A stretch of 62,648 nt of DNA, counting the filler, from Sphacelaria rigidula (taxonomy: Eukaryota), in the NCBI GenBank assembly GCA_964200075.2. It is 4 parts of 4 records of this genome, joined end to end, with 100 filler letters (N's around TTAATTAATTAA, not from the genome) between each part and the next. Parts side by side here need not be neighbours in the genome. Positions count along the whole stretch, not along the records: positions 31,376 to 46,962 come from CAXNAA020001684.1; 3 more parts are not named here. One strand, written 5' to 3'. This document shows, in pieces, positions 24,600 through 62,314 of this stretch (position 1 is the first letter of the stretch; every line of letters begins with the position of its first letter). Made by a program: the position numbers and the translations under genes. The notes beneath the pieces are model-generated. The model had not been told where the DNA came from and searched no databases. It saw only the letters and a program-made list of their open reading frames with translations.

Positions 24600-24962
24600 A
24601 AACCGGGAAGGAGTGTACATGCCACAACACACCTGTGAATGACGTTGCTGTACACCTGTTTCTTTTTCCCTCGCTCTTTGAACCCCTCCCCTTCCTCGGG
24701 ATGAGTCCGTGGTCCTACGGGATCAACCCACCTCTCCCGGTACGTCGTGCATTTCATTTTGATTTCACGGATTGGGTCAGCACTCCCGCACCGCGTCAAC
24801 TCACGTCACACAAACCCAGTCGACTATTTTGTTTACTCACGTTCTCTCGCTTTTCACGGTGGAAATCATGCATTACGAAGAAAAAACCAACACATCGGGA
24901 ATCGAACCCCCGTTCTCTCCACCCGAACGGCGACAGTCGGACCATTACACCACCGGGGCGTG
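24600..24962 (-). mobile_element. tRNA-derived SINE family B
   Basis: Reverse complement has A-box TGGTGTAATGG and B-box GGTTCGATTCC; ~290 bp colinear with 37426-37710. Confidence 0.75.
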
Positions 24963-31275: not shown

Positions 31276-31375
31276 NNNNNNNNNNNNNNNNNNNNNNNNN
31301 NNNNNNNNNNNNNNNNNNNTTAATTAATTAANNNNNNNNNNNNNNNNNNNNNNNNNNNNNNNNNNNNNNNNNNNN
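31276..31375. other. Artificial contig spacer
   Basis: N44-TTAATTAATTAA-N44. Confidence 0.97.
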
Positions 31376-31496
31376 TGACGACAACAAAAAAATGTTTTGT
31401 ATGTCAGGGCGTTTTTCTCGTCTTTGGGGTGTTCATAATAAAATCCCCCATTTTATTCCCCCCCCCCCCCCCCCCCCCCCCCCCCCGAAACAAAAG

Positions 31497-31910
31497 GTGG
31501 ATGATGACCAACCCGTTTCGAGACCCAACAATAGCTCAAGCAACAACAACAATAATCGTTCCATACTGGGATCCATCATGGAAGAACGCGAGAGGGCCGG
31601 CAGCGCCGTGTCTGTCGTGTCGCTGAAGAGCGTAGAGACCCCGACCGCGACGACAGCCAGCAGTGCCGGAGGTGCCCAGGGTACAAGCGGCTCGATCCCC
31701 TGGCGCGGCCGGCTGAGCTCCGCCAGCAGCAGACTGGCCGGGAGGTTGGGCAGAGCCGGCAGCGGTGCGCGAGAAGAACTTGATGATGAGGAGAAGCGAT
31801 CTGACTGCTACAGAACTGGTACTGGTGTAGCTGCGACCGGGTCAGTTGGAGATGATGATCGTGCGGGCGCGGATATGGGTATGGGTGAAGACGAAGAGGA
31901 GAAGGTGTAA
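31497..31910 (+). CDS. Terminal exon of a host gene (disordered, acidic C-terminus); upstream exons lie outside this contig
   Basis: Poly-C tract then caaaag|GTGGATGATGAC; open GC-rich frame to EDEEEKV-TAA; followed by simple-repeat-rich 3'UTR-like sequence. Confidence 0.65.
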   Translation: MDDDQPVSRPNNSSSNNNNNRSILGSIMEERERAGSAVSVVSLKSVETPTATTASSAGGAQGTSGSIPWRGRLSSASSRLAGRLGRAGSGAREELDDEEKRSDCYRTGTGVAATGSVGDDDRAGADMGMGEDEEEKV

Positions 31911-34900
31911 CAGAGATGAGATATATATATATATATATATATTTCCTCCTCTCCCGCCCATCCCCTGTCCTCCCGTCCCTCCTTTTCCTTTCTTTTTCTT
32001 CCCATTTTGTGGTCTGTTGTTTTTTGTCGCATCCACATTTAAGTCAGGACAGAAATGATATTTTTTTCGTGTGCTTCGCACGCCGAAACGTTAGATGCTA
32101 GCTTTGGAGAGATGTTCAGGTCAGAAGAGGTGGCTCAGCGGCTAGCTAGCGAAACAGGAAGGCTCACTCTTAGATGGTGAATTGGTTGGGCTGGGTTCGG
32201 GAAGGAATATATGACCCGATTTTTTTCTGGGGGGCGGGGGGGGGGGGACTGGAAGAAGGACAGGCACGACGTAATGCTGCTTTCCTTTGGTTTCGCGACA
32301 GATTAGTGGGTGTGGAGTTCATTTGGTTTGGGGATTAGAAATCGCTCTTGTGGGTTGGCTACTAGTGTGTTGTGTGCTGTTTTTATTATGTGTATCTTTA
32401 TTGCTGAGGGACGCACGCGGGTTTACTTGCGATGGTCGCTCCGCCTCTCATCACGCAAGTGGTTTATGCACTTGTTTGCGGGAGAGGCGGGGGTGGTCTC
32501 GAGTTCATGGGTGGTGGTGGTAAGATCGGTGTCTCGTCTGTTATGGCAACAGCTAGTTTCTAACAGTTGCGGCTCGCTACCCGACAAGCCTCTCAATAGT
32601 AGTGTTGGACAATTGGAAACATCACATGCGCACGGTCAATATTGTTGACATGCTGTGATGCGCTTGGCAGAGATGCACGGCAGAATTTGGAAGGTGCACC
32701 AGCTTGCTGAGCGACGATGCGTGGTTGGTGTGTTGCGCGTTTTCTCTCGGCATTTTATACGCTTTTTGTTGTCCCATCTACCCTTCCCCCCCGTTTGCAA
32801 TTCTAGGGGGGCTATCGAGTCGGAACGAGAGAGAGGATTCAAGATAGAGAAACTGGCATACGTTTTTTGTTAATTGTTAAAAAATATCGAGGTAGATCGT
32901 TTTCATTGGCCCGCCGATCGCAGAAATGCGTGTGTGTCGTGCTTCTCTGTGGCGCCGGCGGTTTCTATGTCTTCCCCTCCCCCCCTCCTCCCCTCTCGAT
33001 TCTCACACTCACTTTCGATTAGTTAGGCATATATGTTGTCTCATTGTCTTACTGTTGATTTGTTTAGTTATTTTTCCCCGTGCTCTTGTTCTTGTCCTTG
33101 GTTTTGGTTGGCTATTCATTTCTTGAATTTTTTTTAATAGTCATGTTGGCAGCGCTCGTGCCGATCATTCTCCAGTCTTGAGGGTATGAGTGTCTGATGT
33201 TTCCTATCCAAGTTATAGATAGTTGTCGTCGATGTTGCTCTATGTTCGCGGGGAAAGGTACGAGTGGCTCTTAGGGAGTCCTTTTTCGACGGTACTGTTT
33301 CCTCCTCAGTTGTTCGCTCCACGGGTGCTGATTCGTTGATGATGTATGAATAAAGTAGGTAAATACAGTCAAGTAGTTTTGTCATGATCCATCCCGTTTT
33401 TTTTTTTCGCTGCTTCTCTTCTTGGTCGTGCGTTCTTATTTTTATGCTCGACACATTTTGTTTGTCACTTGTTTTCTATGCTACAATATTCTGTTTTTGT
33501 CACGTCTCGTTTTTTTATTGTTGCGAGGATTGCCGAATACTCTGAGTTATTTGTCGGGTGGTGCACATGTATATATATACATGCATTTGTAGTAAGGCGC
33601 CTGTCCCCATAACATTTTGCTGTTTTTTCTCTGAGCGGGAAGAATTGGGAGATGACTGCGCTGCCACAGCACCATTTTTCTCGTTGGTGGTGTCAAACGT
33701 GATGGTGTTTGATGAGGCGTTGCGTGCGAGTACGTGTTCAGTCAGCCCGTCGCGATCGACGTTCGTGTGTTGGGTCTTACTCCTTTCTTGTCCTAGCCGT
33801 GCCGATTTTCGAGTCAACAGATGCCTCAACCCGAAATTTGCTGCAATGTCTCGTGTCGGCCGTAGCAGGTGCCCGGAGATCCTCGCCGTCGGTCGGTGTT
33901 GGATTCATACCGTCTTGCCTGAGCTTTGTTTTTTTCCTCCCTATTTTAGTCTACTTTGACATCGCAATGTCCCGGTGAAGAGCGGTCATGCTCCAGCCGT
34001 GACGATCAATAAAATTGGGGCAACTTCAGCAGACGTCCTGTCTTTCGCAGTGGATGAATTTGAGAAGCTTCCTGTTCATTTTCAGGGGGAGGGAGGGGGA
34101 GGGAAGGGCTGGGGGGGGAGCTGACATTGGCATTGAAAAATTGATTTTTGACAAGCTCGTGTGTGGTGGGTGTTCCTGGTAATGAATCGGGTTCCGGGAG
34201 GTTTTCAGCCCTTATTATTATTTTTTTTCCAATTTCTGTGTATGTGTTTATTTGTCTTTCCTTAGCCCAGAGGGAAGGTCTGAAGTGGAGTACTACCGTA
34301 GGTATTCACCGGTATGTGTTCTCGCTTTACAGGCCAAGAGCAGTCTGGAAAGTTAAAAGGAGTCCACAATAGTGATAACGCCCGCGGTTAGCGAATGTAC
34401 AGTTGGGATGACCTTCAATATTCTTTTATCCGATTATTGAGTTTTCGTTTGTGTGGTGGGTATACGATGTGTGGGGGGCGCGTGTTTTGACTAGCTCAGT
34501 GGACTCCCATGATAACATTGTAAGTACAGAAAATGTCTGCAGGGATAAGTGCAGCGCGCAGCCGAAACCTTACTGGGAGTCATTTTACTTACACGCGAAA
34601 CAGGGCACAGCAACCTCGCAGGGTCGCGGGAGAGACAGGAGCACCAGCGCCCGGATAGGTGGGGTGACGACTCGTGTACAGAGTCGCGCTGGGGGACTCT
34701 GCCAGGAGGTTTGCTCGGTGAGCATGATTCATCATCCAAGCCCGAGACTACTTAGGTTGGGGGGGCACCCCCACCTTCGTGCTTCCAAGTACACCGTACT
34801 GTCTCAGTGACAATTAACAGTGTTTTCGAGATGTTTAGAGTAGAGGATCTGATCGAGAGTGAGCAACGATCAAGCTATGAATAAATCGTTTCGGTTTCAA

Positions 34901-34979
34901 AATGACCCTCGACGAGGCCCGATATGCTTCCTGTGGTAGCTTGCCACTGAAGCCCCTGGTACCCTTGAGTAGGAGACGT

Positions 34980-35690
34980 CATCATACACGCCTGGCCCTC
35001 AAATAGGAGATTTCGGAAAGGCGAATATTGCCTGGAACAACGAGTATCGTGGTGGGAAGACCGCAAAACGTACCCAAAACGTTACTACATACGCCTGGAC
35101 CTCAAACGGCAGATTTTGGACAAGCGAATATCTACCGAGACAGCGAATATCAGTTGTTAGAAGACCGCAAAGCTCACTCAGAGCGTCATCATATATATAC
35201 GCCTGGATCTTAAGTAGGGGATTTTGGACAAGCGAATACTTCCTCGAACAGCGAATACGGTGGTGGGAAGACCGAAACACTCACCCAAAACGTGATCATA
35301 AACGCCTGGACTTCCAATGGGGGATTTTGGACAGGCGAATGTTTCCTGGAACTGCGAATATCGTGGTGTTTAGCCCGCAAAACATACCCAGAACGTTGTC
35401 ATATACGCCCGTACTTCAAACCGGAGATTCTGGACAGGCGAATATTTCCTGGAACACCGAGTATCGTGGTGGGAAGACCGAAAAACTCACCCATAACGTT
35501 ATTATGTAGGCGTGGACCTCAAATTGGAGATTTGGGACAGGCGACTGTCCCCTGGAACTGCGAATATCGTGGTGTTTAGCCCGCAAAACATACCCAGCAC
35601 GTTGTCATATACGCCCGTACTTCAAACCGGAGATTCTGGACCGGCAAATATTTCCTGGCCCATCGAATATCGTTGTGGGAAGACTATAGC
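34980..35690. repeat. ~103-bp satellite array, ~7 units
   Basis: Anchor gcgaata (or variant) at 35021, 35124, 35232, 35335, 35438, 35541 and 35644. Confidence 0.9.
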
Positions 35691-37425
35691 CATTGCCATA
35701 CGATCTGGACAAGAGGACTATCCACGAGGGACTCCTCCAGTAGCACTGGCCTCGTGCTCGACAAGTCCTTTCTCCCCAACATGCTATTATCAGAGGTATC
35801 TCAAACTCGGCGATCCTGAATCATTGGACAAATAGTCCAGGATCTCCTGGACTACGAGTTTGAGATACTTCAACAGAGATCCCGGAATGACATCGAGGAT
35901 TCCCCAAATGGATCTTTGAGGAAGTGTCGTGGTCGAGTCTCAGGGTAGCGTATCAAGCTCGTGAGACATGGGCTGGGGGTGGTGAAACACCAGCGGCCAG
36001 CGAAACCGTTACTGCAGGCAAGCAGTTGTACTGCACCAGAGACTCACCGAAGAGTTCGATTCAACCAGCACTGCATACATCATGCAAAGCACAGGCTTAC
36101 TTTCACGTGCAGAAGAGGTGCTCTTGTCTTGCTTGCAAGCGAGGTGTCTCCAAGTGGTGGCTGATAGCTTTGTGATTAGGCTTAGCTACTAGTTAGCTAC
36201 AACTGAAGTTGCTGGGTGATTGAAGTTGTGAGGACGAGGGGCTCCGGTCAATCAAGGACGCCCAATTGGAATACAACACCAACATGCGAATGGAATAAGA
36301 CCTACTACTGGACTTGCCACGCGTACTGCAAAACGCCTACTACACATACAGTCGATATCCGCCGTAACATCCCCCTCCATTGCTTCGTGCACGCTGCTAA
36401 TGGAAGGTAAGGGAAGTCACAGCTTAATGCACTCCGGGGGAGTTCCCTCTACCTTGTATGCCATCAGCCTAAGATCACGGTGGCGACGAGAAAACCGCAG
36501 AATTTCGGGGCTAAAATTAAGCGCGGGAAAAACTCGTCATGATATCGGAAGGATGGGCAAAACCTGGTTTTCAGGAAAAAGCCTGATCGCTTCGGGAAAA
36601 AATCTCTTACGCCCTTTCGGATCATAGCGAGTGCTTTCGCATGTGCTATGTCGTCTCGGGATCCCAGATACACTGGGAACAGAAACCACGGAGAATAGTC
36701 GGTGACTATTTTCCGATGGTAACGGCGCTTAGACACCCTTGATTGATTTACAATCCCGGGTAGTGTAGGACTCGCAAAAAGAGCTGACCCACTAAAAAAC
36801 CTCCAAAAAAAACACAGGTTCTTACAAATTGGGGATGGATCTTTTTTTGGGGATGGGCGAGGTCGAAAGTTGGACCGAAAAGTGCCCAAAACATTTCTCG
36901 GAAATATTGTTCTGTCATTTGTCTGACAGTCACCGGAGGTTTCGGCGGGCGTTCAGCGGAGGTAAGGATGTGACTACTGCCGAGTTTTATTGATCCGCAC
37001 TACTACTACTACTACTCTACTGCTGTACCGTATGCACTTGTTGTACAATATATAAACATGGCATCGTGCCGCGGATGTCGCCTTGCTGCATTCACTGCGA
37101 CGAGCAGATGTCCCAGGAAGGTATTTTGAACACGCCGTCCCTACTATCAACAGTGTCAACTACTCATTATTGGTGGCACCGCGTTCCATGAACGCGAACC
37201 TCAGATTCGTTGTAGTGACCGAAGGTAAGCGAAAAAGAAAGCCCTGGACCCCCTCCCCATTCTCCCCAGTGTAGGCCGGCCGAGGTGCGGAGGAGGGGGG
37301 GGGAGGTGTGGTAATGTTCACAGCACACTACATCCTACACACAAAACAAGTCACCTGACCTTAGAGTGACGAAAGCACCGGAACTGGGGAGAGGGGGTGG
37401 TATTTCTCACTACTATATACTAAGC

Positions 37426-37710
37426 TGCGCCCTGGTGGTCTGATGGTCCGACTGTCGCCATCAGGGGCGCAGAGGACGAGCGTTCGATTCCCCGTGTGTT
37501 GCTTTTCTTCTTCGCACTATGTGATGTCCACCGTGGAAAGCGTGAGGACGCGAGTAAACAACGTTGTCGTCTGAGTTTGTTTGACTGGGGTTGACGCGGT
37601 GGGGGAGTGCTCATCCAATCCGTGGGACCAAAATGCAAGGCGTGTACCGAGGAGAGATGAGTTAATCCCTTGAGACCACGGACTCATCTCGAGGAAGGGG
37701 AGGGGTTCAT
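37426..37710 (+). mobile_element. tRNA-derived SINE family B
   Basis: A-box TGGTCTGATGG and B-box GTTCGATTCC; body matches the reverse complement of 24675-24962. Confidence 0.75.
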
Positions 37711-38458
37711 AGTGCGACAAATACAAATATATATATTTTTTAAAATTTTACAAAATCCCTCAGAAACAGAGAAACAACACTGATTTCTATATAAAAAACG
37801 AGAAAAACAATATTTGTCGTGCCGCCCGAGGGGTGTGTGTGTGTGGAGGGGGCGGGGGGTTGTGAGGTTTCACACTATTGTTTTTTGTCCACCCTCTCAG
37901 CAACTCGCATTATTGTTGATATTCAGCGTGGTACTGTTGTTTCGAAGTACGTAGCCATCAACCATCTATCTCCCCGTTCTCCGTGCCGACACTTAAGTTA
38001 CTACTTACTGTACTCACTATTACCGCGGCATTCTTTCTTGCGCACGGGCATACCCACCCTTTCTGATATGGTGACCATAGCACACACACACAGTTGTTTG
38101 ATGGCCCCGCTACTATTTCTCACCCCCGCACCGACCCCGCCATAACCACAAGGTAACTAGGTAGGTGCGCCAGGCGGGCAATTGCTGGAAAGTACCCCTT
38201 CTGCTACGAACAGTGTAACAACAAGTGGTTGGTGGCACCACGGAAACACGAGAAGAACGTATACGATATCTGTTGAACGTAGTAGGGTGACGTTTTTGAA
38301 GCCCGCATTCATCAATCGTCAATGACATATGTTGTCATTCAAAACTGCGGGCATCTACCACGTCCTCTGCAGGTGTTACGTTTGTTTGACATTCCGCCAA
38401 AACGTTGCCCTCATCACTTAATCGATGCCGTCCGACCAACGCCACAAGGCCCCGTTTC

Positions 38459-39229
38459 CTACCCCACTTCACTCCCTGCCTCGACTTCTACGCCCCCCAC
38501 CCCCCCACCCTCCTTGCCTTCACTCGCGGCCCTTAATGTCGCCAACACCGTAGATGGGATCTTCTTTCCTTTGCCAATGAGTGCGGTGCACGTCGCAACA
38601 ATTCTAGATATGGGCTCCCAGCTGGATTCCTTTTCCCGCTTCCGCTTAGAGCGCCCCCCGCTTCCGCCACTAGTCTCACAGAATACGTAGCTCTCCGCGA
38701 ACGCGACTTTCCCGTACTCGTCAAGGCTCATGGATGCGGCACGTCTAAGAATGGCATCGCAGCACGGCCGTAGCCAATGCAGATCCACCCCACTCTCTCC
38801 GTCATCGCTAACACGCTTCGCCAAAACCTTTCCGATGACGAAAGGTGCCCCCGTGGCGATGAAGAAGGCAAAGCCACCTTCTTCGACAACAGAGTTATCG
38901 TCTCATGCTGGACGTCGCCCAGCCGTGCCCCTTGTTTGACGCCGGCCCCGTCTACCGCCACCTGGTTCATCATTACCGGTGCAATCGCTGTCTGAACAGC
39001 CTTCGTTGGCAAGCACGGTGTCGTCTCATGTTGGACGTCGCCCAGCAGTACCCCTTGTTGAACGCCGGCCACGTCTACCGCCATCCGGTTCATCGTCGTC
39101 CGCGCTATCGCTGTCTGCGTCAGAGGATGATGCAACAGGGGATTCGCTGCTGTCAGTGCATTGGTTTCCGTCCGAGGACGAAATGCCTTCCGAGCCCGAC
39201 CTTGGCGAGGGTTCTTCTGCAGACGACAT
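38459..39229 (-). pseudogene. Probable C-terminal coding remnant of the Sola-like transposase
   Basis: One continuous frame interrupted by TGA at 39028-39026 and 38905-38903, reading acidic linker then GFAFFIATGAPFVIGKV..VDLHWLRP..; same strand as and downstream of the core; assignment inferred. Confidence 0.45.
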
Positions 39230-39319
39230 GGTATAACACTAGGGTAGAATTAATATTGGGGTAGACTGCGGTTTTCCATCACATCCAGGCGATAGTCTGT
39301 GCTCAAGCTTTACTGACGG

Positions 39320-39900
39320 TACTTCCTCGATATTTGAGTAGATTTCTGCAGGTCGTATGCGATGTACCCAAAACTTGAGTAGATGATTCGAGGTCGTACC
39401 CAATCTACCCAACAGTTCAGTAGAGTATTTGAGGCCGTACTCGACCTTCTAGAAATTTGATTAGAGTGTTGAGGTCATTGACGAGTGATACTTTACACTC
39501 AAGTTTTACGAAGAGTGCTGACTCGGTATTTGAGTAGGGTATTTGAGGTCGTATTCGACCTACTCAAGATTCGGGGAGCGTAAATACCCGAGTATTTCCC
39601 GCGAATACCGTGAAGTACATCCACTACTCGACCTACCCTTCGAAACCTTCCACGCAGCTTATTCCACGTACTTCCGCGGAAACACATATGATTCCATGGA
39701 AGTTCGTCCGTCAAAATATTCACACGGACCTTGCATGAAAGCCCTAAACCTCGATGGCAGCTGCTTCGAGATAGCTCCCATCGAAGTCGTCCATCATATA
39801 GAACTAACGAACTTCCATGGAAATAAATTCGACCACGTTCCATCGAAGCTCTCGGCGACGTCCGCGAGCTTTCATGGACGCTGGTCGAAGTGCGGCAGAT
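39320..39900. repeat. Inserted repetitive DNA (ttgagtag..gaggtcgta units, then ttccatgga units) replacing the middle of the transposase gene
   Basis: Recurring short motifs; truncates the putative exon 8 at ~39900. Confidence 0.5.
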
Positions 39901-42900
39901 AGTGTGGGAGCTCGATCACGCAGCCCGAGACAACACCTGTCTACAGCAGCGCATGTCATGATTGTCATGTGACAATATTCATACAGCGACAACACATGCA
40001 CGGAACTCTTCGGTGCACGAGCGATTCCCGACGCATACGACGTTGGCATCTTAAGGTCGTCGACCGTGCTTGCCGCTTACCTAGAAAACACCTGGTCGAC
40101 TTTTATGTGGGTGTGTCCCACCGTCATGAAGTTCACCTCGATCACGTCCACGATCTCCTCCGCCACTAACATCCCCGCGTACCCGAGGAAGAAGCTGTTC
40201 TTGTTCTCCGAGGCGGCGTTGTCCACCTGAGTGGTTGCCGGTAAGAGGCGTTGGGGGGCGGTAATGGAGATAATTGAAATCCTCCTTTTGTCTGTGGGCA
40301 TCGAATACCACCAAGTAACAATCTGAGGATCGTAACTGGTGGCTCTCGGTTTGCACGTTACAACAATGCATGCACTCCAGGCCCTCGACGACGTGTTCAA
40401 CATATATCATGACGATGCGTTCCGTGACGGAGCTCACCTGCCAGTGCGTATGCTTGATGATGCACCCCCCGTCGCCGTCCGGCTTGTGATGAGTGTCGAT
40501 CACCCTGGTGAGGGCGAGATGGACAGCCTTGCACGCGAGATTGCAGCCTGCATGACAAAGATTGCGGATGCAGGGCGAGGTATTCGATTGTGGTGGATTT
40601 CGGAATACGAGTATTGCCGTACAGGACAAGGGAGTGAAGTGTGGCGGTCAGCACGACACGGCCGGACGCTTGCTCCATCGGCGGTGGCAGTATGTAGTAC
40701 GTTGTACTGCCCAATCGTTAGTTTCTGACTAGGAGAATCACGCACCTGCCCCGAGATTCTGAGGCGTGAAGAATACTTCGACGCACTGGCCTTCGACTAG
40801 CGCACACTGGATTTTCTGGCGCTCTGCGTAGCCCCTGGTAGCATGCTTAATCATCGCGACGTGGGACAACATGAACAGAGGGTTATCTGACGTCGTTTGG
40901 TAGTAGTGTTGATACAGTGGACGGCATCTAGAACGGGTTGTCACCGAAGATGCGTCTAAAACTCTGTAACTGCGGCTTGGCATTGAACGGTAATCACCTC
41001 TGGCCGCCATGTGTAGGGAGTATACTTTCGGAAGGATATGCGTCGTCTGGTTTGCCGCGTCTACCGACAGCGAGATGTAGTCCAACTCTTTCCCATCGGC
41101 TTTGGCTCGCAGCGCGGCTTGAGTGGTGTCTGCGATGACCTGCCGATCAGCTTGGATCATCTGTTCAACACAGCGTGCGCAAGCAGCGTGGAGTGCACGT
41201 TTGTAGGAATGCGTTCGATTGCTGCGCAGGACAACCACCGCATAATGGAGGCGCGTGTTGTTGAATACACGGGGTTTTACACATTGGGGATGGAGGTTTA
41301 ATCGGGGATGAGAACGAAATCCAAATTCGTATGGCGTGGAGTAGTTGTCAATAGCTGCCAGCAGGTGAAGAAATGGAACGATGTTTCGAACATTTGTTGC
41401 GGATACGAAGATTTTTATTGTCCGGGTTCTCATCCCCAACAAAAATCCACCCCTGATGTGTCAAATCCCGTGTTTGAAGCATTCCTGACGTAGTCATCAT
41501 GACGTGATGTACTTACTTCAAGTGACCACGGATCTAACTGGTACTTCCGACGATCTACTGCACTTGTTGACAGGGCGACGGTTCATGCTTCCCCCAATTG
41601 TGTAATATATGATCGAAAGAGAAGGGTAATAATAACGTTTGCTTCACCTCCTAGTATGATGTTCACCTTCCGATGCTGTTCGAGGTCGTCGGCGACTTTC
41701 TTCAGGAATATTGAACCGATCGGGGGCTTCACGCCTGGAGTTCCATGCAGGGTCTCCTCCAACTTGATGCACAGATCGCACTTCATGAAATCTCCGCCTA
41801 CCCTAACCTCGATGTGCGGCCTGTGCTTCCTCCAGATTTTGTTGAAGTGCGTTTTTGACGCTCGCGCTTCTGGACGGTCAGGGTGGACTCGGCGAACCTC
41901 TTTGCAATAGTCGTCGTAGAGCTCCTGCCAGGACGCGTTGTTGTTGTCGGGGTGTTGTAGTGGCGGAATTCATGAACGAGCAGCAAAGATCCTGTGGGCA
42001 TAGCGCAGGAGACTCCCGCTTCTATGCTTCGATTGAAAAGCCGAGGCGGCCCCGTCGTCTTGTGACATGCAGTGGCACCCGCCTGGTTACGACAATAATT
42101 CACACGCTTTCCTTAAGATTGAGGACGTATATATATATATATATATATTGACGATGAAGGATGGAAACCTTCATGTGCATCGAAACGTTTTCGAAATTCA
42201 AATACAAATGGACTATCCGGCTATGATGAGGTGGCGTCGCTCATCCTAGAAAAAAAAAATCAACCCTAATCTGTGGAATTCCGTGCTCGTCAGGGATTTT
42301 GACACAGAGGAAAGGTTTCTGATACCGGCGTGACCGGAGGGAGAAATTCTTGTGAAAACAAATCGGATTTCACAAATCGAAGGTGGATTGTTGTTGAGGA
42401 TGACCGAGGCCGAACATCATAGTCAAAATCGTTCACGATCGCGGTGGGCTTCACAACAGCGTCTTGTAGGACGGGTAACACTGCACAACCTCCTGCAGCT
42501 GGAGGCATAGTGTATGCACGCGATACATAAACATGGCAACGTTGACCACCAATAGTACCTCCTTCGTTTCAGCGTAGATGACCACAGCAGTCTTGTGGGG
42601 CATGGCCTCTCCGTACGTCTCACGAAAGTAGTCCAACGATGACAAAATGCTCTCTTTCTTGCCGTCGGGTTTACGTCGGCAGTCCCTGCAGCACATGTAC
42701 GCACATAATACACAGCGCAAGGGGGGGGGCGCAGGTGCGGGATGGCCCTCCTCTACATCAAAAACATGGGCAATCGAAATGTTTGGGTCCTATGTACCAA
42801 AACCAATTTGGGGGATTTTCGGCGATCTGATCGGGTCGTCTGGATTCAATAAGTTTCCTTCACGTGGGACCCAACCTGTCGGTCATCAGGATCCAGGTTT

Positions 42901-43320
42901 GTACGCCTTGTCGTAGCTGTCAACAGCTACCAGTAGTGGAAGGAGTGGATCTAGAACTCGAAGATTTCGTGTGGATACGAATATTTCAATTATCCGGGTT
43001 ATCATCCTGACCCGCAGCAAGACACGACTATATGAGCGAGTTCTTGTGAACCCGCATACGAATATCAAAGCTGCGAACGCCCAATGCGTCGTCTTGTCCT
43101 CCTCCAGAACGTGCGTACTGAGGGAAAACAGCCACAGGGAGGGCGTCAATAAAAACGTGCATAATGCGCGCATAATTCGCGACAATGAGATGCTTTAAGT
43201 GGCGCATCGTTTCCAAAGTTGAGCAAAAAATGAAAAAATGCCGACACGTGATTCCACAAAACAATGGAGGACGCACAAACGAGTACATGGGGCTGGTTTG
43301 CTGTGAAACGGAAAGTCCTT

Positions 43321-43768
43321 AACACGGGATCTTACAAATTGGGGATGGATCTTTTATTCGGGATGAGAAACCCGGAGAACTCACATATTCGTGTCCAAAC
43401 CAAATCTTCGAAATATGGTCCTATTTCTTCACCTCCTACTGATAGCCATTGGCGACTGCTACACGTCATAGAAATTTGGATTTCGTTCACCGTAATGTTA
43501 GGGTCCTAGGTGAAAAACCAATTTTGGGGAATTCCGGGCGTACGAACGGACGCCAAAATGGTTCCGAAATTGTTTTTTCACCTGGGACCCCAACATCTCG
43601 GTGATCGACATCCAAATTTTGTATGGTGTGTAGCAGTTTTTACTAGCTATCAGTAGGTGAAGAAATTTAAACATAACTTGAAGATTTGGTGTGGATACGA
43701 CGATTTTAATTCTCCGGGTTCCTCATCCCCAATAATGGATCCATTCCCAATTGGTAAGATCCTGTGTT
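43321..43768. mobile_element. 448-bp foldback MITE with ~200-bp inverted arms, in intron 1 of the transposase; fragments at ~36811-36857, ~41265-41475 and ~42930-43010
   Basis: aacacgggatcttacaaattggggatggatc...gatccattcccaattggtaagatcctgtgtt; arms pair throughout (ctgatag/ctatcag, ctgctacac/gtgtagcag, aatttggat/atccaaatt). Confidence 0.8.
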
Positions 43769-44141
43769 CCCTCCTGTCCACTCCGACTCTGTGGCAACTC
43801 ATTTAATAAGTCTGGACGGAGCGGCACAAAAGAACCGGACACTGATGTCTGGGGAACTAAGGCGACTTTCTCGTGGTAGCTGATTACCTCAAATGCGTCA
43901 AACATCGTAAGAGCTCAACAGAGGAAATTTGTTTTATCGCCCCGAACATGACAAAGATGCGGGGATCTCAGATGTGGGTTTTCTCGCTTCGCAAGAGTTT
44001 CAGAAAAATCTGAGCTCCACAAGCAACAACGTTTTCGCGAGATTGAGAGTAGAGCGTTGATTGCGAGTGGATTTGGTAGAGCTCGGAAGTAGTTTGTCCA
44101 ACCGTCAACCACTTGAATCGTTACGCGTAGCGCATTCATTT

Positions 44142-44312
44142 CCCAGATAGATGATACACAATTGTTTCGTCAGCGAGCGGTGCAGCCGCTATCGAAATAG
44201 CCCCCGCCGGCAGAGGGGGCCACCCCCCCCCTCCCCGCCCGCAGGGGGCGGCCCTGCGATGACGCCCCCGGAGAGCCCCGCTGGAGGCGCCGTGCCGGAG
44301 GCACGTTCTCTA
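44142..44312 (+). repeat. Short GC-rich element with a Helitron-like layout (5' TC, subterminal hairpin, CTA end)
   Basis: tcccagatag...cgtgccggaggcacg-ttct-ctat; the end is not canonical CTRR; ccagatagatgataca also occurs at ~12028. Confidence 0.3.
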
Positions 44313-45227
44313 TGCCTGTAGCACTGCCGTGTGCTTACAGCCACACGTCGATATCCTACTCAGGGATACCAAGGAACTCAGTGGCAAGCTACTCCAGAAA
44401 GAATATCGGGCGTCGTGGAGGGGCATTTCGGAACTGTAAAGATTCATTCACGACATGGCAGCTTTTCACTACCAATAGCATTCTCCACTCTCAATTTTAC
44501 GAAAATCATGGTTGAAAGTCAACTTGAAACCCGAATTCCGACCTCGGACACAACGCGGCAACAACCTGCGGCTCTGCGTCGTGGCACGTGGTCAAGTGTT
44601 GCCCTGTCTAGAAAGCACACGTCCGGCGGCGGGCACAAACAGCGATGACCGCTCGTTCTGACTCACCACGTTCTGGCATTCGCTATTGCTCCCGGCGTTC
44701 CCTTTGCCGCGTCGATGACATTGTTTGAAATACCGAACGATGCCTTGGAGAAATTAGTGCAAACTGGCGTTCCGCCGGCGAGCATGGAGCCTTTACCTTG
44801 TTCCAGGTTCACGACGGGTACACGGTCCGCAACGAAGATCTTGCGATCTTCACGCTTTACACACTTACTTGCTGATGAGGGCTTGCTCAGCTATCAATGC
44901 ACGACCCAAGTACGAAGTTTCGTCTTTGAACTGTTGTATGCAACGCAGCTTCTGGCAGCAGTTCTCTTGGTCCCTCACTGGAATGGGTGTAGGCCACTTT
45001 TGTCTCCGCTTGGCATCCGCACCGTTGCTCTCGCGCAGAACATCATCCGCAGGCCGGTCTTGTGACGCCGTCGTCGACGGCGGCGGCGACGGGTGCAGCG
45101 GAGCGAGCCAACGTCGGGCTGTGCCAGCGAGAAACATGGTGTGTGTTGGCTGTGAGATTATTGGGGCCTGACACCACTCCGAGCTCCTAAGACTGACTTG
45201 TATGGCAGTCGAAGAACGGATCTGTAC

Positions 45228-45379
45228 GCAGATCAGGGGACCTCAGATCCGGAAACGCATTGTATGGACCCCAATTTGAAACAAATCAGGGAAGCTCAGA
45301 TTCGTTTGTCACGATTTGATAACGGTTTTACACAAATCTGAGCTCAGATCTGTGGAAAATTCAGGTCCCCCGAATCTGT
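45228..45379. mobile_element. Small TIR element; related motifs at ~45940-46015
   Basis: cagatcaggggacct ... aggtcccccgaatctg inverted ends with internal cagat(c/t) repeats. Confidence 0.5.
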
Positions 45380-46480
45380 AGCAACTGACGTGCGTATATT
45401 GACGTAGAGTGATGGGGCAGCAGGCGTTTGGTATTTTTGCAACAACAGCAGCAGACAGTCTCGTGACAGCACAGGCAGTGCCTGCGAGTGCCGGCTGCTG
45501 GAGAAGCTCCGCACGGGGTTTCACAAGCGGAGGAGAAGTGTTGACGCCGTACCCTGCGATGATGGCAAAATTTTATGCTGCACTGTGCTGCTGTATGCAT
45601 CATCATAACGAAGGGTACTGTACTATCCTACACTCTGCTGTCGCGGTCGTTGCAGGGTGATGAATGACACTACACTCGTGAACTCTTGCCGCACACTGTG
45701 CACTGTTCTCGCAATACCGACTGTGCCATCATGTATTACCCCACGGAATTATCCTATACTGTGATTGTGGAGTGTACTGCACTGCATCATACCCTGGGGT
45801 ACCATGGTACGGCGCTGCTTTTGAAGGGTGATTCCCTCCCTGCCTATTCTTCAGCTTCACTGTGATACCACGCCCGCCCAGAAAATGACGACTGTTCGCG
45901 CACAGGACAATTTCAACAAATCTGTGAAGCCATACGGGGGTACAGACGAATCTGAGTTTCACGAATCTCGGTCCCCCCGATTTGGCACAGATTCGGGTCC
46001 CGCTAGATTCGGGATTTTCTTACATACAAGTCGGTCTAAATTCAAAGTGCCGTGGGAATACGTCATTTTGATATCTCCTGGCCGCGCTGACGGTCGGAAA
46101 TGGGAGATACCCGTTGCATGTATCTGCCAATTTTTTGTAATCGTTCACGCAGTTTCTGTGCTGAATTGATTTCTTTTTTATTGCAGGTTGCCCGAAAAAC
46201 TGTTCTGGACATTCCAGTGCCACCCAAAATTGTTCGTGGTTCTGAAATCACGCTTGTAGATAACAAACAATATGAAATTGCATTCTGTTCGATATTCAAA
46301 TTCATTGAAATCCAACGTGCAGTAATCAACCCCCTTGGCAGTTTCAATGGTCCGTGAGGACACCATCAAGTAAACAGCGTGCCCCAATACCTCACTTTAA
46401 ATTCATCTGCCTTTGACAAATCGAGCCACTTCATCCCCGTATACCATACGTGCGGAATATTTGTCTGCTGCTGCTGGACG

Positions 46481-46876
46481 ATGCCTTCCCGTAAGACCGC
46501 CGCTGCCACAGCGTCGGCCTCAGCAGGCGGGCCTGCGAGTGGCAACAACCAGCCGTTGGCGCCGGCTGCCCCCGATGGCATGCCGAAAATTCTTCAAGAA
46601 CACTTTGTTGGGCTGTATCGGATGAAACTTGGCAACATTGCATGCACACAGATGGTTTGTGCTGTGAGCGACGCGGGCGTCCAGACTGTAGTGGACTCCA
46701 TCCGTGCAACCGGGTGTCTCGACCACTTTGCTCCGTCGATCGTCATCCAGCGAGAAGCTGTGCGAGACGGCGAGCCGCTGACGGCCGAAATTATGCGCGA
46801 GACGAAGAGTCGCGTACTCGATGGCAACCACCAACAATGTTTTCGTGAGAAGATTGAGAATCTTCGATACGATTGA
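46481..46876 (+). pseudogene. ParB/sulfiredoxin-like N-terminal domain protein, apparently broken just after the DGNH motif
   Basis: MPSRKT...QMVCAVSDAGVQTVVDSIRATG...APSIVI...SRVLDGNH(Q) follows the ParB/Srx pattern (l..SI...G...P..V...lidG.HR); conserved Arg absent; contig ends at 46962. Confidence 0.6.
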
Positions 46877-46962
46877 GAATAGGGTTGAGGCAAGCTGTCA
46901 GCGGTCGGTTGTGCGTACATTAATGGAGAAGACGCTTATCTCGCATATTGATGCAATATTCT

Positions 46963-47062
46963 NNNNNNNNNNNNNNNNNNNNNNNNNNNNNNNNNNNNNN
47001 NNNNNNTTAATTAATTAANNNNNNNNNNNNNNNNNNNNNNNNNNNNNNNNNNNNNNNNNNNN
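46963..47062. other. Artificial contig spacer
   Basis: N44-TTAATTAATTAA-N44. Confidence 0.97.
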
Positions 47063-50000
47063 AATCCCGGGGAGCTGTTGATTCTCATTTCAAAATACGT
47101 TCTCATTTTTCTGGCAAACCTGTTCTATCTTACAATCACGCCAGATAACACCTGTTCCCAGGACCATGCAAACTCTATCCGATTTATTCTCAGCTACCAC
47201 CACAACCCTGCAGCATAGAGCACGAGTTAAGCACAGGAATAGATGTCCAGAGATCACTGCCTGCCCCGGCTGCTTGTTCAGAATGAATGAAGAAGAAATA
47301 ATTTATTATTGGGAAACAAAAGAGAGTGACCTTCGAGGGGATCAACAACTCCCACCTACAATGCCGAGAACCACACATCGAGCCAATCTCCCGCGGGCCA
47401 TATAAATGTCCCGTGGAACATTCTCACTCTTGTTCTGGATAACATTCTTTTTGACGGAGACTTCCAAAGAAACATGTCTTACACTACTCCGAAAGATATC
47501 TGCGGATGCAGAATTGACTAATATACGAACACCCTCCTTTGGGCATTTGCTACATCAACAAGTAGTTTCCTTTGATCAACTCTCAGAACTCTCGACAAAT
47601 AGATATTGCTTCACTCAATACCCAACAAAAAAGTTCGATGGTGAACGAAAGCTCCGCGAGGTAACGCTTTGGTCAGAATATCAGCGTGTTGCTCGTTACT
47701 CCATACGTGTTCCAACGTTATCCTCTTTTTGTCCACTAACTCCCTCAGAAAATAATGATGACGAATATCTATATGCTTGCTGTTCGACGAGCTTATTGGA
47801 TTTTCAGCTGAAGCAGTCGCACCCTAGTTATCCTCCAACACCCTGATGGTCCTTGCTTTCCTGTCAACTAAAAATAAATCAACAATGCCGTCTATAAACA
47901 AAGCTTCTTTGACACCATCCCCCATAGCCACATACTCTGCTTCCGTGGTCGAAAGCGCAACGCTCTTCTGCGTCCTGGAGTACCATGGTACTCGTGATCT
48001 ACCGCACAAAACTGCACCACCCGATACCGATCTCATCGCCTCGTCATCCTTCCCGTAGTCCGCATCCACATACACTGTTGTTCTTGTGCCTACACCAGGT
48101 CCTACACGATATGTCAGCCCTAGGTCCGCCGTTGAATGCAGGTACTCAAAAATCTTTCGTACTACTGCCTTCCAGTGGGTTCCTTCCGGTCGTGCGAGTG
48201 TCGCGCCACGACCCTTACTGCGTTGGAGATGTCAGGTCTGGTTTGATTGGCAATCCACATCAAACAACCAACCATTTCGCGAAACGGCACATCCTTGACA
48301 CCTTCGTCGTCATTCACGGACCTGAGATTCATAGAAGTAGAGGCGGGAAGAGAGCTGGAGCGGCAAATATCAAAACGTGCAAGTACGCTTCTAATGTAAC
48401 TTGTCTGTGACAATTCGATAACCCTGTTCTCCTTGTCACGCTCGTACTCCACTCCCATGTACCATGTGAGATCGCCCAAATGCTTAGTTGGCAGTGTGTC
48501 ATTTAATGCTTCCACCACTATCTTACCCACACTACTTGCCCCGCCAAAAATGATACGATCTACATGCAAAACGACTGCTCCTACCACCTTACCATCCACT
48601 AGCAATCGCAATATGCATGGATCCAACAGGCAGTGTTCGAAACCAATTTTCACAAGTCTTGACACTAACAGTTTGTAGAATTGTCTGGCGCTCTGTTTAA
48701 GTCCATAAATGGATCTGTTGAGGCGGACAATGTTTCCTGACATTGATCCGCAACCTCGGGGCAGTCTCATATATATCTCATAGTCCAAATCCGACTGAAT
48801 GAACGCCTGCTCGATGTCGAAATGGCTAAGATCCCATCCATACGCGTTTGCCAACGCTACGAGGAGACGAATTGTTGCAGCATTCGCAGTAGGTGAAAAC
48901 ACACCTCCAGGAAATCAATCTCGTACCGTTGACTAAAACATTTTGCTACAAGCCCAGCCTTTTCCTTCAAGATTTCGCTGTTGACATCAGTTTTACACTT
49001 GAAAACCCATTAAGCGTTCACTATGTTACTCCCTTCCGGAACCGATCCTACGAAGGTAAAAGTCCCTGCTGCAAGCAACCCCTCGAACTCTAAATCCATA
49101 GCCCCTCCCGAAGGTCAGCATGTGCAGAGGCGCGGGCTTCGGCAATCGTTGTGGGCTCTGGCTCTTTGGCATGTTCGGCAGGTATCTCGTTCGGCTTCTT
49201 CTTCAATGTCCTCTGCTCAGCAATCAGCGCACCCAAGGTTTGGTCCCCGTTGATGGGCCCCAGCGAAGTTAGCAAACCGATCGCTTGTTGCTGGTTCAGC
49301 GCCCGAGTTTGTGCTCGCGTCCTGCCCTCCCTGCGTTCTTCATCGTCATGTGGACCGACGTTGTACGCCTCGAGCTGTCTCAGCGCGTTGCGTGTTTGCG
49401 CTGGCACATCATCTCCATCAGGAATGGCGTCGCTGCTGTTGCTGGAGGACGATGCAGGTGTTGATGATGTGCTGCTGCGAGATGATGGTGACGTAGACGC
49501 TGATCGGTCGTCGAGAGATGGCGAGGGCGATGTCGATGACGAATCGCCGCCGGATGCTGATGGTGATGGTGATGGAGCATCCAGCGGTACTGGATATTCC
49601 GCCGCCTCTGCTGGTTGTCGACTTTCCTCCACCCCCTGGGTCGGTAGCCGCACGTGGGGAATCCCTCTTCCTGTCAGCGGCCACACTTCTGCCAACTCAT
49701 CGTCGCAGGGTTCTTCCCCCCCCTCCCGATTCCGTTGCCGTCAGTGTTTGCGGGGGCGGGAGAGACTGCGGCGATGCTTCCCACGTGATGTCTCGGGTCT
49801 CGACAACTTGCCCTCCCCGCGTTGGCACACGGTAAGAGTCGCGCGGATGCTCGCGCGAAGGCCCGAGATAGAAGCAACTCTCCGCCTTAGGCAGCCGCTT
49901 AGATGGCCGCTTCCATCGGCAGTAGGCTGGCTTGAGAAAGGGATGTGGACTGGCCGGCATAGCCGTCCCGAACCACATTTCGTTAGGTGATTTGTTATCC

Positions 50001-52832
50001 GGGTTGAAGGTCGAAGCAGTGTAGTTGAGCTGTTCATAAGCCCAATGCATTGCCTCGGCCCACAGCTTTTCGGTCTTCGGCAGCTAAACATGACCGAACA
50101 ATACCTTCGCCTGAGTCCTTGCCGCCATTGCCGTCGCTCCAATGATTCCTAAAGCGCGCTCTGCAACGCCGTTGAACTGGGCACTATTGGCGGGGGTAAA
50201 TTCCTGCTTAATCAACAGATTATCACATACTGCTCCGAAATTATCCCCGAAAAACTCTCCTCCGTTGTCAGATCTTACTATCTGTACTACTGAAGGAAAC
50301 CCGTCCGCTCGCACATCTGCGAGGAAACGGTTGAAAGTCTGATCAGAATCAGCCTTACGTTTCAAGAAATACAGCCAGGATGTTCTGCTGTAATCGTCCT
50401 TGATGATCATTGGGTAGTGTTTCCCCCCTACAGATGCAATTTCTTTTCTGCCTCCTAGGTCTACGAAAACTCTACCAAGCTTGGTTTGAGCTCTATTTTT
50501 AGTCTGATGAGGTATACCTTTTCTGTATCCCTTTCCCATCGAGCACCCAGTACGTGCATGCATTTCCCCTTCAAGTGCAGTATCTAAATGTCTAGCAGTA
50601 TGCCTCAGCAGCTGCTCATGAGCATGACCATAGATACAGTGAAGCAGGTTAATATCCATCCTTTTTACAGGGGGAGGGTTCGAGGGCATAATCGCTGGTA
50701 ATGCGGAAGCATCAAATTGCTCCCCAACTCGATATGCTGTGGCCACCAACATACCGTCCTGGTTCGCAAACATTACACGTCCGTTGAATGCAGTCATTAT
50801 ACCATCTGGACCTCCCAACCAGTCCCAACTTTCCCCATCAAATTCCGCACGAGGCGAAAACAGGTTGTATCCTAGATCAGGAGCATCAAGTACGTCTTTC
50901 AACTCTGCTACATACTCGTTCTCCTCTGTCATGAACACTACTGTCAGATTCCCCTTCAGCGAAACGTCACACGTCACGCCGCCTATGCCACCAACACCAG
51001 AAGATACTTGTGTATGATCTCTCATGTATCGCAATGAATCTGTCAGATGATAGGGAGCACCAGTATCACCGTACCACTCTTCACAGAAAGGCCTAGAAAC
51101 AGCAGCAACCAACGACTTCAAGCATGAAAGCTCACCACTGTCTTTCTTCGACTCGGCTTCGCCTTCCTGATCCGGAGCCCTGATTACTTGAGCTTCGCAG
51201 TCCCGTATCCTGTGTGGAAGACCACACCGAAAGCACTCTAGTGGCTTCCTGCCTACGTTTTCAGCTTTCGCGGAATTACTCGTATCAGTATCAGGTTTTG
51301 GCTTCCTTGCTTTACCCTTATTTCCACCCCCCCTGGCTTTCGCAACTAGAGCTTGCCCGGTCGATTTGGCAATATTGCCCCCTGTACAGAGAAACTTAGG
51401 TAGGCATTTCACACATGGCTCTCTATCGCTTCTCGACCACGAGGAAAATGAATGCTCATAGCACTTCTTCTGACCATTTCGTATTCACTCGTGAGTCCAC
51501 GCAACATGAGGGAACAAACAGTTCTCTCATCCTTCTCTACCCCTAACATAAGTAGAACGCTCAAAACTTCCCTGAGCTTTGAAAAAAAATACGAGCGGAT
51601 CTCCCCCTTGTTTCATCTTCAACCCGTTGAGCTTGTGCTCATAGAGGTTGATATTTGCGTCGGTGAGGGGCAAAAAGTGATTATTCAGTACACGCCACGC
51701 TTTACTGGGGGATTTCGCGTTGCTGATCATTACTCTTACACTTTTGCATGTTATACAATCGTCCAGATGCCACCAAGCAGCCTGTGCTTGCTTGAATTGG
51801 CTTACCGTAAAGCCTTGCTCAACCAAGGGTGCCAAATTTATTCCAATATCAGCAACTGGAATATCATCGGTAGTGATGTACGCTGCTTCATGCAATCCAC
51901 ATTGCCTGGCATGTGTAGAAAAACGCTCTTTCCATCATAGGAATTCAGTCGCAGTCCCATCGAATTTCAAACCAGCAGGTAATCGAATACCTCTAATTCC
52001 GAAAGACGACACGCCGCCTGTGCTTGCATTATTACCACCACCGAAACCCGATCCAAACACCTCTACATTTTCCCATCATTCGGCAGTACCTACCGCTGGC
52101 GGGCGTGAAAAGTCCAAGACTGGAATACCTGCTGATCTCCAGCTGGGGCTGCGGTTTGCAACGCCGCTGCTGCTCTTCTGTCGGTGACACCTTCATGTCG
52201 TCCGACGTACTCCGTACTGGATGCTCCCGGCGCGCCATCTCCGACAGAGGACTCCCCGCGGCCTGCATCCAGGCCGCTGTTCCCCCCTGGACCCACCAGG
52301 CTGCGTTCGAGTAGGCTTCCCAGCTCCTGTATCTCCGTCTTCAGGTCTTGGTTCTGACGGAGAATTTCTTTGTTCTCTCTACGAACGTGGGCCAGGCCTT
52401 CTTCTTGTGTAGCGGGAGAGCTACTCCCATCTGCTTCACTCCCGGGCGGAGACATCTTTTCTGCAGTCGTCGCGTGTCCAGAGATCGCCGCCTGCCCCGG
52501 CAGCTTGTTCACAATGAATGAATGTCATGGTATTTGAAGAAACTGGCGTCGATAAGGTACCGTGGCGCTGTGTACATCAGATGTCGGAGTAAATGAACGT
52601 TGGATATGACTCTTGGTCGGCTGCCGTGGCTCGTCAGCTTGTTGGAAGATACAGATATACAATGTATTCTGGATAGCCGATGGGAGATACAGTATGGCTG
52701 ATGTCTGCACATCGAATAATCACGTACACAATGAAGAGTGTTCCAGGAACGTTCGTTGGATGGAGGATCTCTGCTCTTTGGTTATTGTATTATGATTTGA
52801 TGTGGATATAATTCCTACGTAAGGTGGTTACA
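47063..52832 (-). mobile_element. Ty1/Copia LTR retrotransposon, degenerate
   Basis: Order gag-PR-IN-RT-RH; candidate PPT AAGAGTGAGAA then 3' LTR starting TGTT at 47420; candidate 5' LTR end CCAACA at 52640; outer boundary uncertain. Confidence 0.92.
47611..52512 (-). pseudogene. Copia gag-pol with multiple frameshifts and stops
   Basis: Zn knuckle CFRCGLPHRIRDC, protease WYGDTGA, integrase IKDDYSR/SDNGGEF/NGVAER, RT FDIEQAF/YGLKQSAR/LHVDR (catalytic DD lost), RNase H YVDADY/EAEY/KHIDIR/ADILTK. Confidence 0.9.
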
Positions 52833-57400: not shown

Positions 57401-58097
57401 CCCTAGCTGGCCCTTGTCTCATGAAACCTGGCAACATGTATACAACGTCAGTATGTCAATGCACAACAATGATCCGCCATTGTGGGCCTCAGACATAGAT
57501 CCCGTCGCACGGTCGGATCTTATTTGCTGGTTTAAGGATAGTTGTCTAAACTGCGGTTCGGTTTTTAATCCCCAAACGGGCTGCACTTCGGATGGTAGAG
57601 TTGCTGCGCATTCAATGCGCCAGTGTCAAGCGCCTTTCGCAAATTCGTCGGGTCTCTTGAACAGGGCGTTTTTCAAACCGGAGTACGCGCACTGCTGGCC
57701 TAAATGGCAGGCCCGCATGCGCTCGTATCGCGACAACTGTGATAGTCGTTCACAGAACACGAGCATTCCGCACAACCACTACCCTCGCACGAACCAACCC
57801 CGCTACAACAACTATCGAGGTCACCCCTCCTCATACGGCCCCCAGACTCAGGGGTATGGTTACAACCCACACGCCGCTCAATTGACCAATCAGGCACATG
57901 GTCAAGTGTCGCAGGCTCCTACCCAAAACCCCAACGCCAATCAACTAGCACTCCCACCCAGCCAACCTCTGAACAGTCAGACGTCGACACAACCTTCGCA
58001 AGACGCTAGACGCGCCTTGCCCCCTGACCCTCATGGCCCTCCAGCGCAACAGACTCAGTCAAATAACACAGCGCACCCCGCCATGCGTACCACCTGA
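54463..58097 (+). pseudogene. Gypsy gag-like region, fragmented (largest piece 56751-58097)
   Basis: Successive + frames; capsid-like helical stretch, CLNC...HSMRQC knuckle, Q/P/N-rich tail; lies upstream of pol. Confidence 0.6.
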
Positions 58098-62200: not shown

Positions 62201-62314
62201 CTCTGGACGCCTCTCGTCTCCGACTACGGGTTTAAGCATGAGTGGGCTGGCACCTTCTGCCCCGAAAACGGCGCTAGGTGGATTGCCCCCCAGATCTTTT
62301 CTTTCGGTCTCTAA
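59279..62314 (+). pseudogene. Gypsy pol (protease, RT, RNase H) with an in-frame TAG at 61898-61900
   Basis: ALPDSGS, DVLLGRD, LTVNYQRLN, FDMQSGYHQ, PQGASGAPGAFQR, YLDD, HTDAG, RPIVYLSR, LTDHKSL, NANADVLSR. Confidence 0.93.

Follow-up and report, generated by a model that had tools for sequence, protein, structure and literature searches.

Whether two decayed genes that lie back to back in the genome of the alga Sphacelaria rigidula are the remains of a single two-gene DNA transposon, or of two insertions that merely became neighbours, is the question raised by the locus described here. The locus was analyzed within a window of 62,648 nucleotides from assembly GCA_964200075.2, the whole stretch consisting of four pieces of 15,586-15,588 bases each, whose neighbours are possibly non-adjacent in the genome. 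Both genes of interest are located in piece 3 (31376-46962, record CAXNAA020001684.1): a transposase gene with a DUF7869 domain on the minus strand and an open reading frame (ORF) of a ParB-type family on the plus strand (Table 1). The two domains lie in divergent orientation, both genes are decayed, miniature inverted-repeat transposable element (MITE)-like sequences are nested among them, and the region is multicopy. The favoured reading, to which about even probability is given, is that a single giant algal DNA transposon of the cut-and-paste kind, with two divergently transcribed genes, left the decayed copy that extends from about 34.9 kb to 46962. Work published in 2025 has already described this arrangement in giant transposons from brown and red algae, and the present locus is probably a further, damaged example.

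The family of the plus-strand ORF has the ParB/Srx fold, a link that is clear in predicted structures and merely hinted at in sequence. An exhaustive HMMER search over 1.84 billion representatives revealed 48 homologous proteins at E<=1e-3, including eight at E<=1e-10 and one at E<=1e-30, all of which are fragments of 71-301 aa. The best relative, P0001, shares 79% identity with residues 1-118 of the window ORF, and because this alignment begins at the own first methionine of P0001, the start at 46481 is supported. The homology of the family spans 46481-46834, and 43 of the 48 relatives match solely this site when searched against the window by tblastn. The fold was tested on models of two close relatives of the truncated window ORF, P0001 and P0016. 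The AlphaFold2 model of P0001 (predicted local distance difference test, pLDDT, 72.4) gave eight Foldseek matches at E<=1e-3, every one of them Noc, ParB or PadC. In the VIA comparison of the same model, ranks 1-32 (Z 10.1-6.6) were taken by ParB, Noc, PadC, pNOB8-ParB, KorB and sulfiredoxin-type chains, together with some further proteins that we take to be of the ParB/Srx fold, and the next, unrelated row had a Z of 3.7; Noc (7ng0) was matched at Z 10.1 with a root-mean-square deviation (rmsd) of 2.3 over 95 residues. P0016, the longest relative (model pLDDT 75), matched ParB-CDP (6sdk) at Z 11.2 with an rmsd of 2.3 over 95 residues. Across the two models, the N-domain fold is common to ParB, Noc, KorB, PadC and sulfiredoxin (Z 9.3-11.2, rmsd 2.0-2.9, 92-99 residues). 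The alignments of P0016 with pNOB8 ParB (150 residues, model 23-199, rmsd 4.1) and with KorB (134 residues, model 31-203, rmsd 3.5) enter the helices after the N-domain, which at residues 148-203 are modelled with pLDDT 67-84 before the value drops below 50. These helices, modelled with moderate confidence, align with the helix-turn-helix (HTH) region of pNOB8 ParB and KorB and may correspond to it. In the ESM Atlas structure search, six of ten rows were ParB_N clusters and one was DUF6551. A reading of this DNA made earlier from sequence alone (hereafter the sequence-only reading) had proposed a ParB/Srx fold for the ORF, with which structure prediction and comparison agree; it had also asked which domains follow the N-domain, and the structure models suggest HTH-like helices in P0016, a region that is absent from the window copy.

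At the level of sequence, Pfam returned no family for the window ORF, which did not reach the gathering score of ParB_N (PF02195), and was also blank for P0001, P0016 and the ORF of a metagenomic contig, L001, that is described below. Among 45 members, only sub-threshold Pfam matches were seen, namely DUF6551 in two (best E 0.02), GmrSD_N in two (0.069) and DndB in one (0.2), all presumably members of the ParB clan. PHROGs gave matches for none of eight sequences, and the bacterial ParB, Noc, KorB and PadC show no significant sequence match to the algal family in Pfam, PHROGs or the PDB. A PDB profile search placed phycocyanin on top (E 0.053), which was taken as chance. A word-index search of family alignment A1 against proteins of 528-2000 aa found no match, which is weak evidence.

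An alignment of 45 sequences revealed a compact conserved domain containing the family motif RVLDGNHR, with near-invariant columns at G66, S73, G78, P85, D114, G115 and H117. Within LDGNHR, the D, G and H are invariant and the N and R are kept in at least 90% of the family rows; a downstream 'IAN' is also kept. CTPase ParBs possess two nucleotide-binding boxes, the GERRxR arginine patch and the ENLQR box. The DGNHR of the algal family contrasts with the arginine-rich GERRxR box of ParB, the position of which we take to be equivalent. Many family members (P0004, P0005, P0010, P0012, P0017, P0020, P0024 and P0025) lose likeness directly after 'IA(N/D)', and the reading xE[FYCSL] that follows is compatible with a GTGAGT donor site, suggesting a conserved phase-1 intron of the spliceosomal type in many members of the family. 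P0001, P0022 and P0016 read through this apparent intron position. In contrast to the bacterial ParABS system, the algal family appears to consist of eukaryotic genes with an intron.

The window copy of the ParB-type ORF is decayed. It reads RVLDGNHQ, the R that normally follows DGNH being replaced by Q, it has C in place of the W of GWL, and its similarity to P0001 ends after codon 118 (46834). The tail (46835-46962), when read in a different frame, retains a weak family likeness (P0022, score 49; P0001, score 27) and has no similar sequence elsewhere in the window, and the reported contig depth at 46848 is very high; the tail may have arisen either by a frameshift plus a deletion or by a nested repeat. 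The sequence-only reading took the contig to end inside the ParB region, which was a misunderstanding: position 46962 is the edge of the artificial linker that closes piece 3, and the remainder of the gene lies outside the window.

A ParB-type ORF of this kind is not necessarily a transposon gene. It could be a multicopy host-family pseudogene, or the relic of a large DNA virus or of a prokaryote-derived insertion, and two comparisons point in that direction. The nearest clusters by features in the Atlas are phage hypothetical proteins plus one bacterial ParB cluster (scores 0.94-0.95), and a metagenome scan with A2 gave 211 pattern matches, the single confirmed one being the phage-like contig L001, which is not an algal locus. 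L001 carries at 2649-3170 (+) a small ParB-like ORF of 173 aa with RVLDGNHRVYILKGIYGDDSEITVYR (RVLDGNHRV), close to the family motif and matching neither Pfam nor PHROGs, and may be a relative of the algal family from a prokaryotic virus. A viral scan gave 86 pattern matches, none of which was confirmed. A non-transposon origin is opposed by the many diverged and often broken copies of the family (48 clusters, and seven, five and seven contigs at site 46555 in the DNA runs X1, X2 and X4, respectively), by the apparent spliceosomal-type intron at one conserved position in many members, by the position of the ORF inside a repeat block instead of unique sequence, and by the lack of viral hallmark genes in piece 3, where 66 further ORFs were compared with Pfam and none exceeded its cut-off. 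Such an origin is regarded as improbable.

The gene on the minus strand has clearly become a pseudogene. Of the ten ORFs tested at first, one matched Pfam DUF7869 (E 1.9e-18, or 9.8e-19 with read-through of a stop), upholding the transposase remnant of the sequence-only reading, and the Atlas grouped the core with eukaryotic DUF7869 clusters. Read-through translation and the Pfam alignment both cross the in-frame TAA at 40077-40079, which is a disabling mutation and not an intron boundary, and only positions 63-117 of the 192 in the profile are detectable in any of the three frames of 39300-41000. Both genes had been called decayed from sequence, and both are. Aspartates are present at three motif positions, SVDAANQ, QVDNAASENKN and GHTHIKVDQ, in the pattern D...DN...GHTHxxxD, which is compatible with a DDD enzyme in which their catalytic role is predicted. 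Sola transposases have a DDD catalytic triad; DUF7869 is the sole family match of the transposase here, and the Sola affiliation proposed in the sequence-only reading is putative. Word-index searches of a 240-aa transposase ORF and of the 128-aa N-terminal ORF against longer proteins found no match, again weak evidence, and a full-text literature search found no paper that mentions DUF7869. In the region that separates the DUF7869 core from the C-terminal ORF, a sequence of about 120 bp is duplicated in tandem (38877-39117), and the duplication encodes an arginine-/glycine-rich, acidic low-complexity stretch.

The transposase gene is presumably spliced, and the sequence-only reading placed its first exon at 44865-45137. 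An ATG is indeed present at 45137 and heads an ORF of 91 codons, and the plus-strand start at 46481 was confirmed, the two starts being divergent and 1.34 kb apart. The role of 45137 as the transposase start found no support, as this ORF matches no Pfam family and the homology of the transposase is confined to about 38459-41969, the interval of 42-45 kb being filled with nested high-copy repeats. Sites within the ORF are covered by 4-15 paralogous contigs in the three DNA runs, like the other body sites listed.

Copy number bears on whether the two genes form one unit. Contigs from the DNA runs X1, X2 and X4 and from one possibly-RNA run were placed on piece 3 at a likeness of at least 80%. 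Exact, single-copy contigs (0-1 differences) cover 31499-35374 and end at about 34876-34950 (~34.9 kb), and from 34878 to the end of piece 3 everything is repeated. At the listed sites outside nested high-copy repeats, the numbers of paralogous contigs are similar over both genes and the spacer (Table 1), which is weakly compatible with a single repeat unit that spans both genes and is present in roughly ten copies. These counts are a weak hint because depth is given per contig, the listed sites were selected, and no listed contig bridges the genes.

A nested MITE-like element (45190-46037) occupies most of the 1.34 kb spacer. When aligned with each other, its imperfect inverted ends score 58, compared with 28 +/- 5.5 (maximum 46) for shuffles, and they are rich in CAGATTCG/CGAATCTG motifs, four of the nine CAGATTCG sites of the window lying inside the element. 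The CAGATTCG motifs upstream of the ParB-type ORF had been considered as parS-like sites; this idea was dropped because the inverted ends in which they sit belong to a high-copy MITE-like element nested here. According to the sequence-only reading, an end of the transposase element between 45137 and 46481 would have separated the two genes; none was found there, because 45190-46037 is a complete nested element with both of its own ends.

Several published eukaryotic systems provide precedents for a ParB-domain gene of this kind. Sola1-1_Ec32 of Ectocarpus is a 21.5 kb element in which a gene for an accessory protein of 1104 aa, with a ParB-like part and an N4C/N6A DNA methyltransferase, lies on the strand opposite to the Sola1 transposase; 1989 copies are described, of which two are intact and most are short fragments, and terminal inverted repeats and a 4-bp target-site duplication are given for it (PMC12477816, Genome Biol 2025). 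In the giant transposon families of Ectocarpus, nested insertions of other transposons are fixed among copies and transposases are often pseudogenised (PMC12477816). A preprint on Bostrychia describes PAG3, a gene for a ParB plus 2-oxoglutarate (2OG)-oxygenase protein in Plavaka elements, which in other red algae occurs in Mutator, Zisupton and Fanzor-encoding elements, is highly mobile among families, and is proposed to bind and modify the DNA of its own element (Petroll et al., 10.1101/2025.02.11.637652). Phage ParB-terminase loci are given as the origin of ParB-HTH modules that, in chlorophytes and chytrids, are fused to Dam-type methylases (Iyer et al. 2016, PMC4738411). The sequence-only reading knew of no cut-and-paste transposon of eukaryotes defined by a ParB accessory gene, a view that is therefore outdated (PMC12477816, 10.1101/2025.02.11.637652, PMC4738411).

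The present locus resembles Sola1-1_Ec32, as far as the published description goes, in having a transposase (-) and a ParB-domain gene (+) on opposite strands with divergent starts, and in its algal context of nested insertions and a pseudogenised transposase. In contrast to Sola1-1_Ec32, for which the full accessory protein is known, the gene here is cut after about 130 codons and termini were not found. With PAG3, it shares an N-terminal ParB-homologous domain in a putative transposon accessory protein. The preprint describes PAG3 as fused to a 2OG-dependent oxygenase, as one of three genes of a cassette carried by EnSpm/Plavaka, Mutator, Zisupton or Fanzor elements, and as having tandem arrays of inverted repeats beside it. 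The present locus differs in having a transposase of the DUF7869 type; neither PAG1 nor PAG2 is seen as a partner, and the array at 34976-35684 contains no array of short inverted repeats. The eukaryotic ParB-HTH Dam-type methylases likewise carry an N-terminal ParB-type module; their methyltransferase domain has no visible counterpart in the window copy (PMC4738411). PIF/Harbinger elements are two-gene cut-and-paste transposons that encode a second, DNA-binding protein beside the transposase; their accessory protein is Myb/SANT-like and their transposase is of the DDE_Tnp_4 type, instead of ParB and DUF7869 as here.

A substantial, though minority, probability is given to chance adjacency in a transposon graveyard. 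In that case the transposase remnant and the ParB-type ORF would come from two elements, one inserted beside or within the other, and the accessory gene seen here as ParB would belong to another transposon (e.g., Plavaka/EnSpm, Mutator, Zisupton or a second Sola-type element) with its body to the right of 46962. The block of 34.9-47.0 kb is a set of nested repeats of very unequal abundance, a setting in which adjacency by chance is frequent, with at least two complete MITE-like elements plus several fragments between and inside the genes, and the ParB gene runs out of the piece, so its own element could extend rightwards. This is conceivable because published ParB accessory genes occur in several superfamilies and are reported as highly mobile among transposon families (10.1101/2025.02.11.637652). 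The similar numbers of paralogous contigs over both genes and the spacer speak against chance adjacency, as do the agreement of the divergent layout with the published Sola1 case (PMC12477816) and the absence of any element end between the genes besides those of the nested MITE.

The single-element reading has further observations against it. The ParB domain is recognised at the sequence level by none of the Pfam, PHROGs and PDB searches, and the metagenome and viral scans led only to a phage contig and to nothing, respectively. No methyltransferase or oxygenase part is visible, piece 3 ending at 46962. Among the contigs listed, none bridges both genes; no copy of either gene occurs in the other three pieces of the window; and in piece 3 no element termini enclosing both genes were found (nor had the sequence-only reading found termini), and no target-site duplication. 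The sole long inverted pair, 34878-34974/44354-44450, would leave the ParB-type ORF outside if it were terminal. This pair was rejected as terminal inverted repeats because its 97-bp unit is high-copy in its own right, both ends are sharp, and the flanking 4-mers differ (GCTA vs CGAC). A single element with a ParB accessory gene, as first put forward by the sequence-only reading, remains plausible: the idea is reasonable and has a published precedent with the same layout, and linkage at this locus is putative.

If both genes belong to one giant transposon, as is favoured here, the DUF7869-type eukaryotic transposase on the minus strand would cut and paste the element, and the plus-strand accessory gene would encode a ParB N-domain, after which intact relatives have helices that resemble the ParB HTH. 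If Sola1-1_Ec32 and PAG3 are a guide, the intact accessory protein may use its ParB module to bind repeats of the element that encodes it, and a putative C-terminal enzyme domain, encoded beyond the end of the piece, may modify the DNA or chromatin of the element. The element would thereby be marked, or shielded from silencing by the host. A bolder and tentative proposal, judged rather unlikely, is that the family constitutes a eukaryotic lineage of its own that Pfam does not see, its proteins combining a ParB N-domain with an HTH (DGNHR motif, at least 48 clusters and a conserved intron). Outside Ectocarpus, it would serve giant transposons of the DUF7869 type (possibly Sola) as an accessory module and act as a nucleotide-switched clamp on element-specific repeats that brings a fused DNA-modifying enzyme to the element.

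The remaining features of piece 3 are mainly repeats. In each of the four runs, the palindromic MITE-like family represented at 43321-43768 reaches the top depth bin, and the interval of 42-45 kb also holds further very abundant repeats. A contig of a paralogous transposase copy is collinear across 41089-41640, and therefore the fragment of this family at 41312-41474 is suggested to predate that transposase copy. The tandem array at 34976-35684, lying directly past the boundary between unique and repeated sequence, has a moderate depth bin comparable to that of the transposase body and may be a subterminal array of the element. As a ParB-site array it was rejected, given its internal structure mentioned above. 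A repeat at 37428-37720 is 80% identical to 24671-24960 in piece 2, shows sharp loose ends at 37651, is followed after 37720 by an A-rich run in other copies, and looks like a short interspersed element (SINE) or the tail of a long interspersed element (LINE). Piece 3 contains no tRNA and no Rfam family. In piece 4, a Copia-type retrotransposon (RVT_2, rve; 47611-51484, -) and a Gypsy-type retrotransposon (RVT_1, RT_RNaseH; 56721-62311, +) were found. In piece 1, exons of a class-V aminotransferase lie at 9520-12677 (+), where two ORFs cover different portions of Aminotran_5; this is likely a host gene with introns.

Table 1. Features of the locus and contig coverage in run X1. Positions count along the window. 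The coverage rows come from a selected 40 of about 2600 sites, and depth is one figure per contig, unfit to rank parts of the stretch.
Feature	Position	Strand	Basis or description
Decayed transposase gene body	38459-41969	-	DUF7869 match and three-frame translation
N-terminal transposase ORF with FMKCDLC	41586-41969	-	Three-frame translation
Transposase segment with SVDAANQ, ...ISLSVDAANQTTHILPK	about 41030-41100	-	Three-frame translation
DUF7869 core, QVDNAASENKN...VGHTHIKVDQVFSR (QVDNAASENKN...GHTHIKVDQVF)	about 40068-40232	-	Pfam
In-frame TAA within DUF7869 match	40077-40079	-	Crossed by read-through translation and Pfam alignment
C-terminal transposase ORF	38459-38902	-	Three-frame translation
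ORF earlier proposed as transposase exon 1	44865-45137	-	ATG at 45137, 91 codons; unsupported
ParB/Srx-fold N-terminal exon-like ORF, decayed	46481-46873	+	131 codons, MPSRK... start, stop 46874-46876 (codon 132)
Nested MITE-like element between gene starts	45190-46037		Imperfect inverted ends 45190-45272 and 45937-46037; high depth bins
Nested palindromic MITE-like element, very high-copy family	43321-43768		Loose ends at 43321 in 313-410 contigs, unlike flanks
Further pieces of the 43321-43768 family	41312-41474, 42775-43007, 36811-36855; 15245-15574		Three fragments; copy in piece 1
97-bp unit opening the repeated block	34878-34974	+	Inverted copy 44354-44450, 80% identical
Tandem array	34976-35684		103-bp unit x 6.8, 206-bp higher order; directly past unique/repeated boundary
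Artificial linkers (three)	15589-15688, 31276-31375, 46963-47062		N44-TTAATTAATTAA-N44
Coverage, transposase body	38272-42638		2-15 X1 contigs, summed depth 152-1154
Coverage	43788-43894		3-7 X1 contigs, summed depth 152-272
Coverage	44622-44979		4-14 X1 contigs, summed depth 199-1103
Coverage, ParB-type ORF	46555		7 X1 contigs, summed depth 256
Coverage, single-copy contigs			Summed depth 20-40

That DNA transposons of eukaryotes can carry accessory genes with a ParB domain was reported only in 2025, from Ectocarpus and Bostrychia in the sources cited above, and still awaits testing; each further lineage of carriers lends weight to the notion that transposons are able to bind their own DNA and modify it epigenetically. 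As a broken copy, truncated by the window and unlinked to a second copy, the locus is valuable as a pointer for a full-genome search and not as a discovery. It contributes at least 48 ParB-like sequence clusters overlooked by standard profiles, and a possible association of ParB with a DUF7869-type transposase. If the bolder proposal above is right, giant transposons of algae would generally rely on self-marking or anti-silencing guided by ParB, which would not be the peculiarity of single families.

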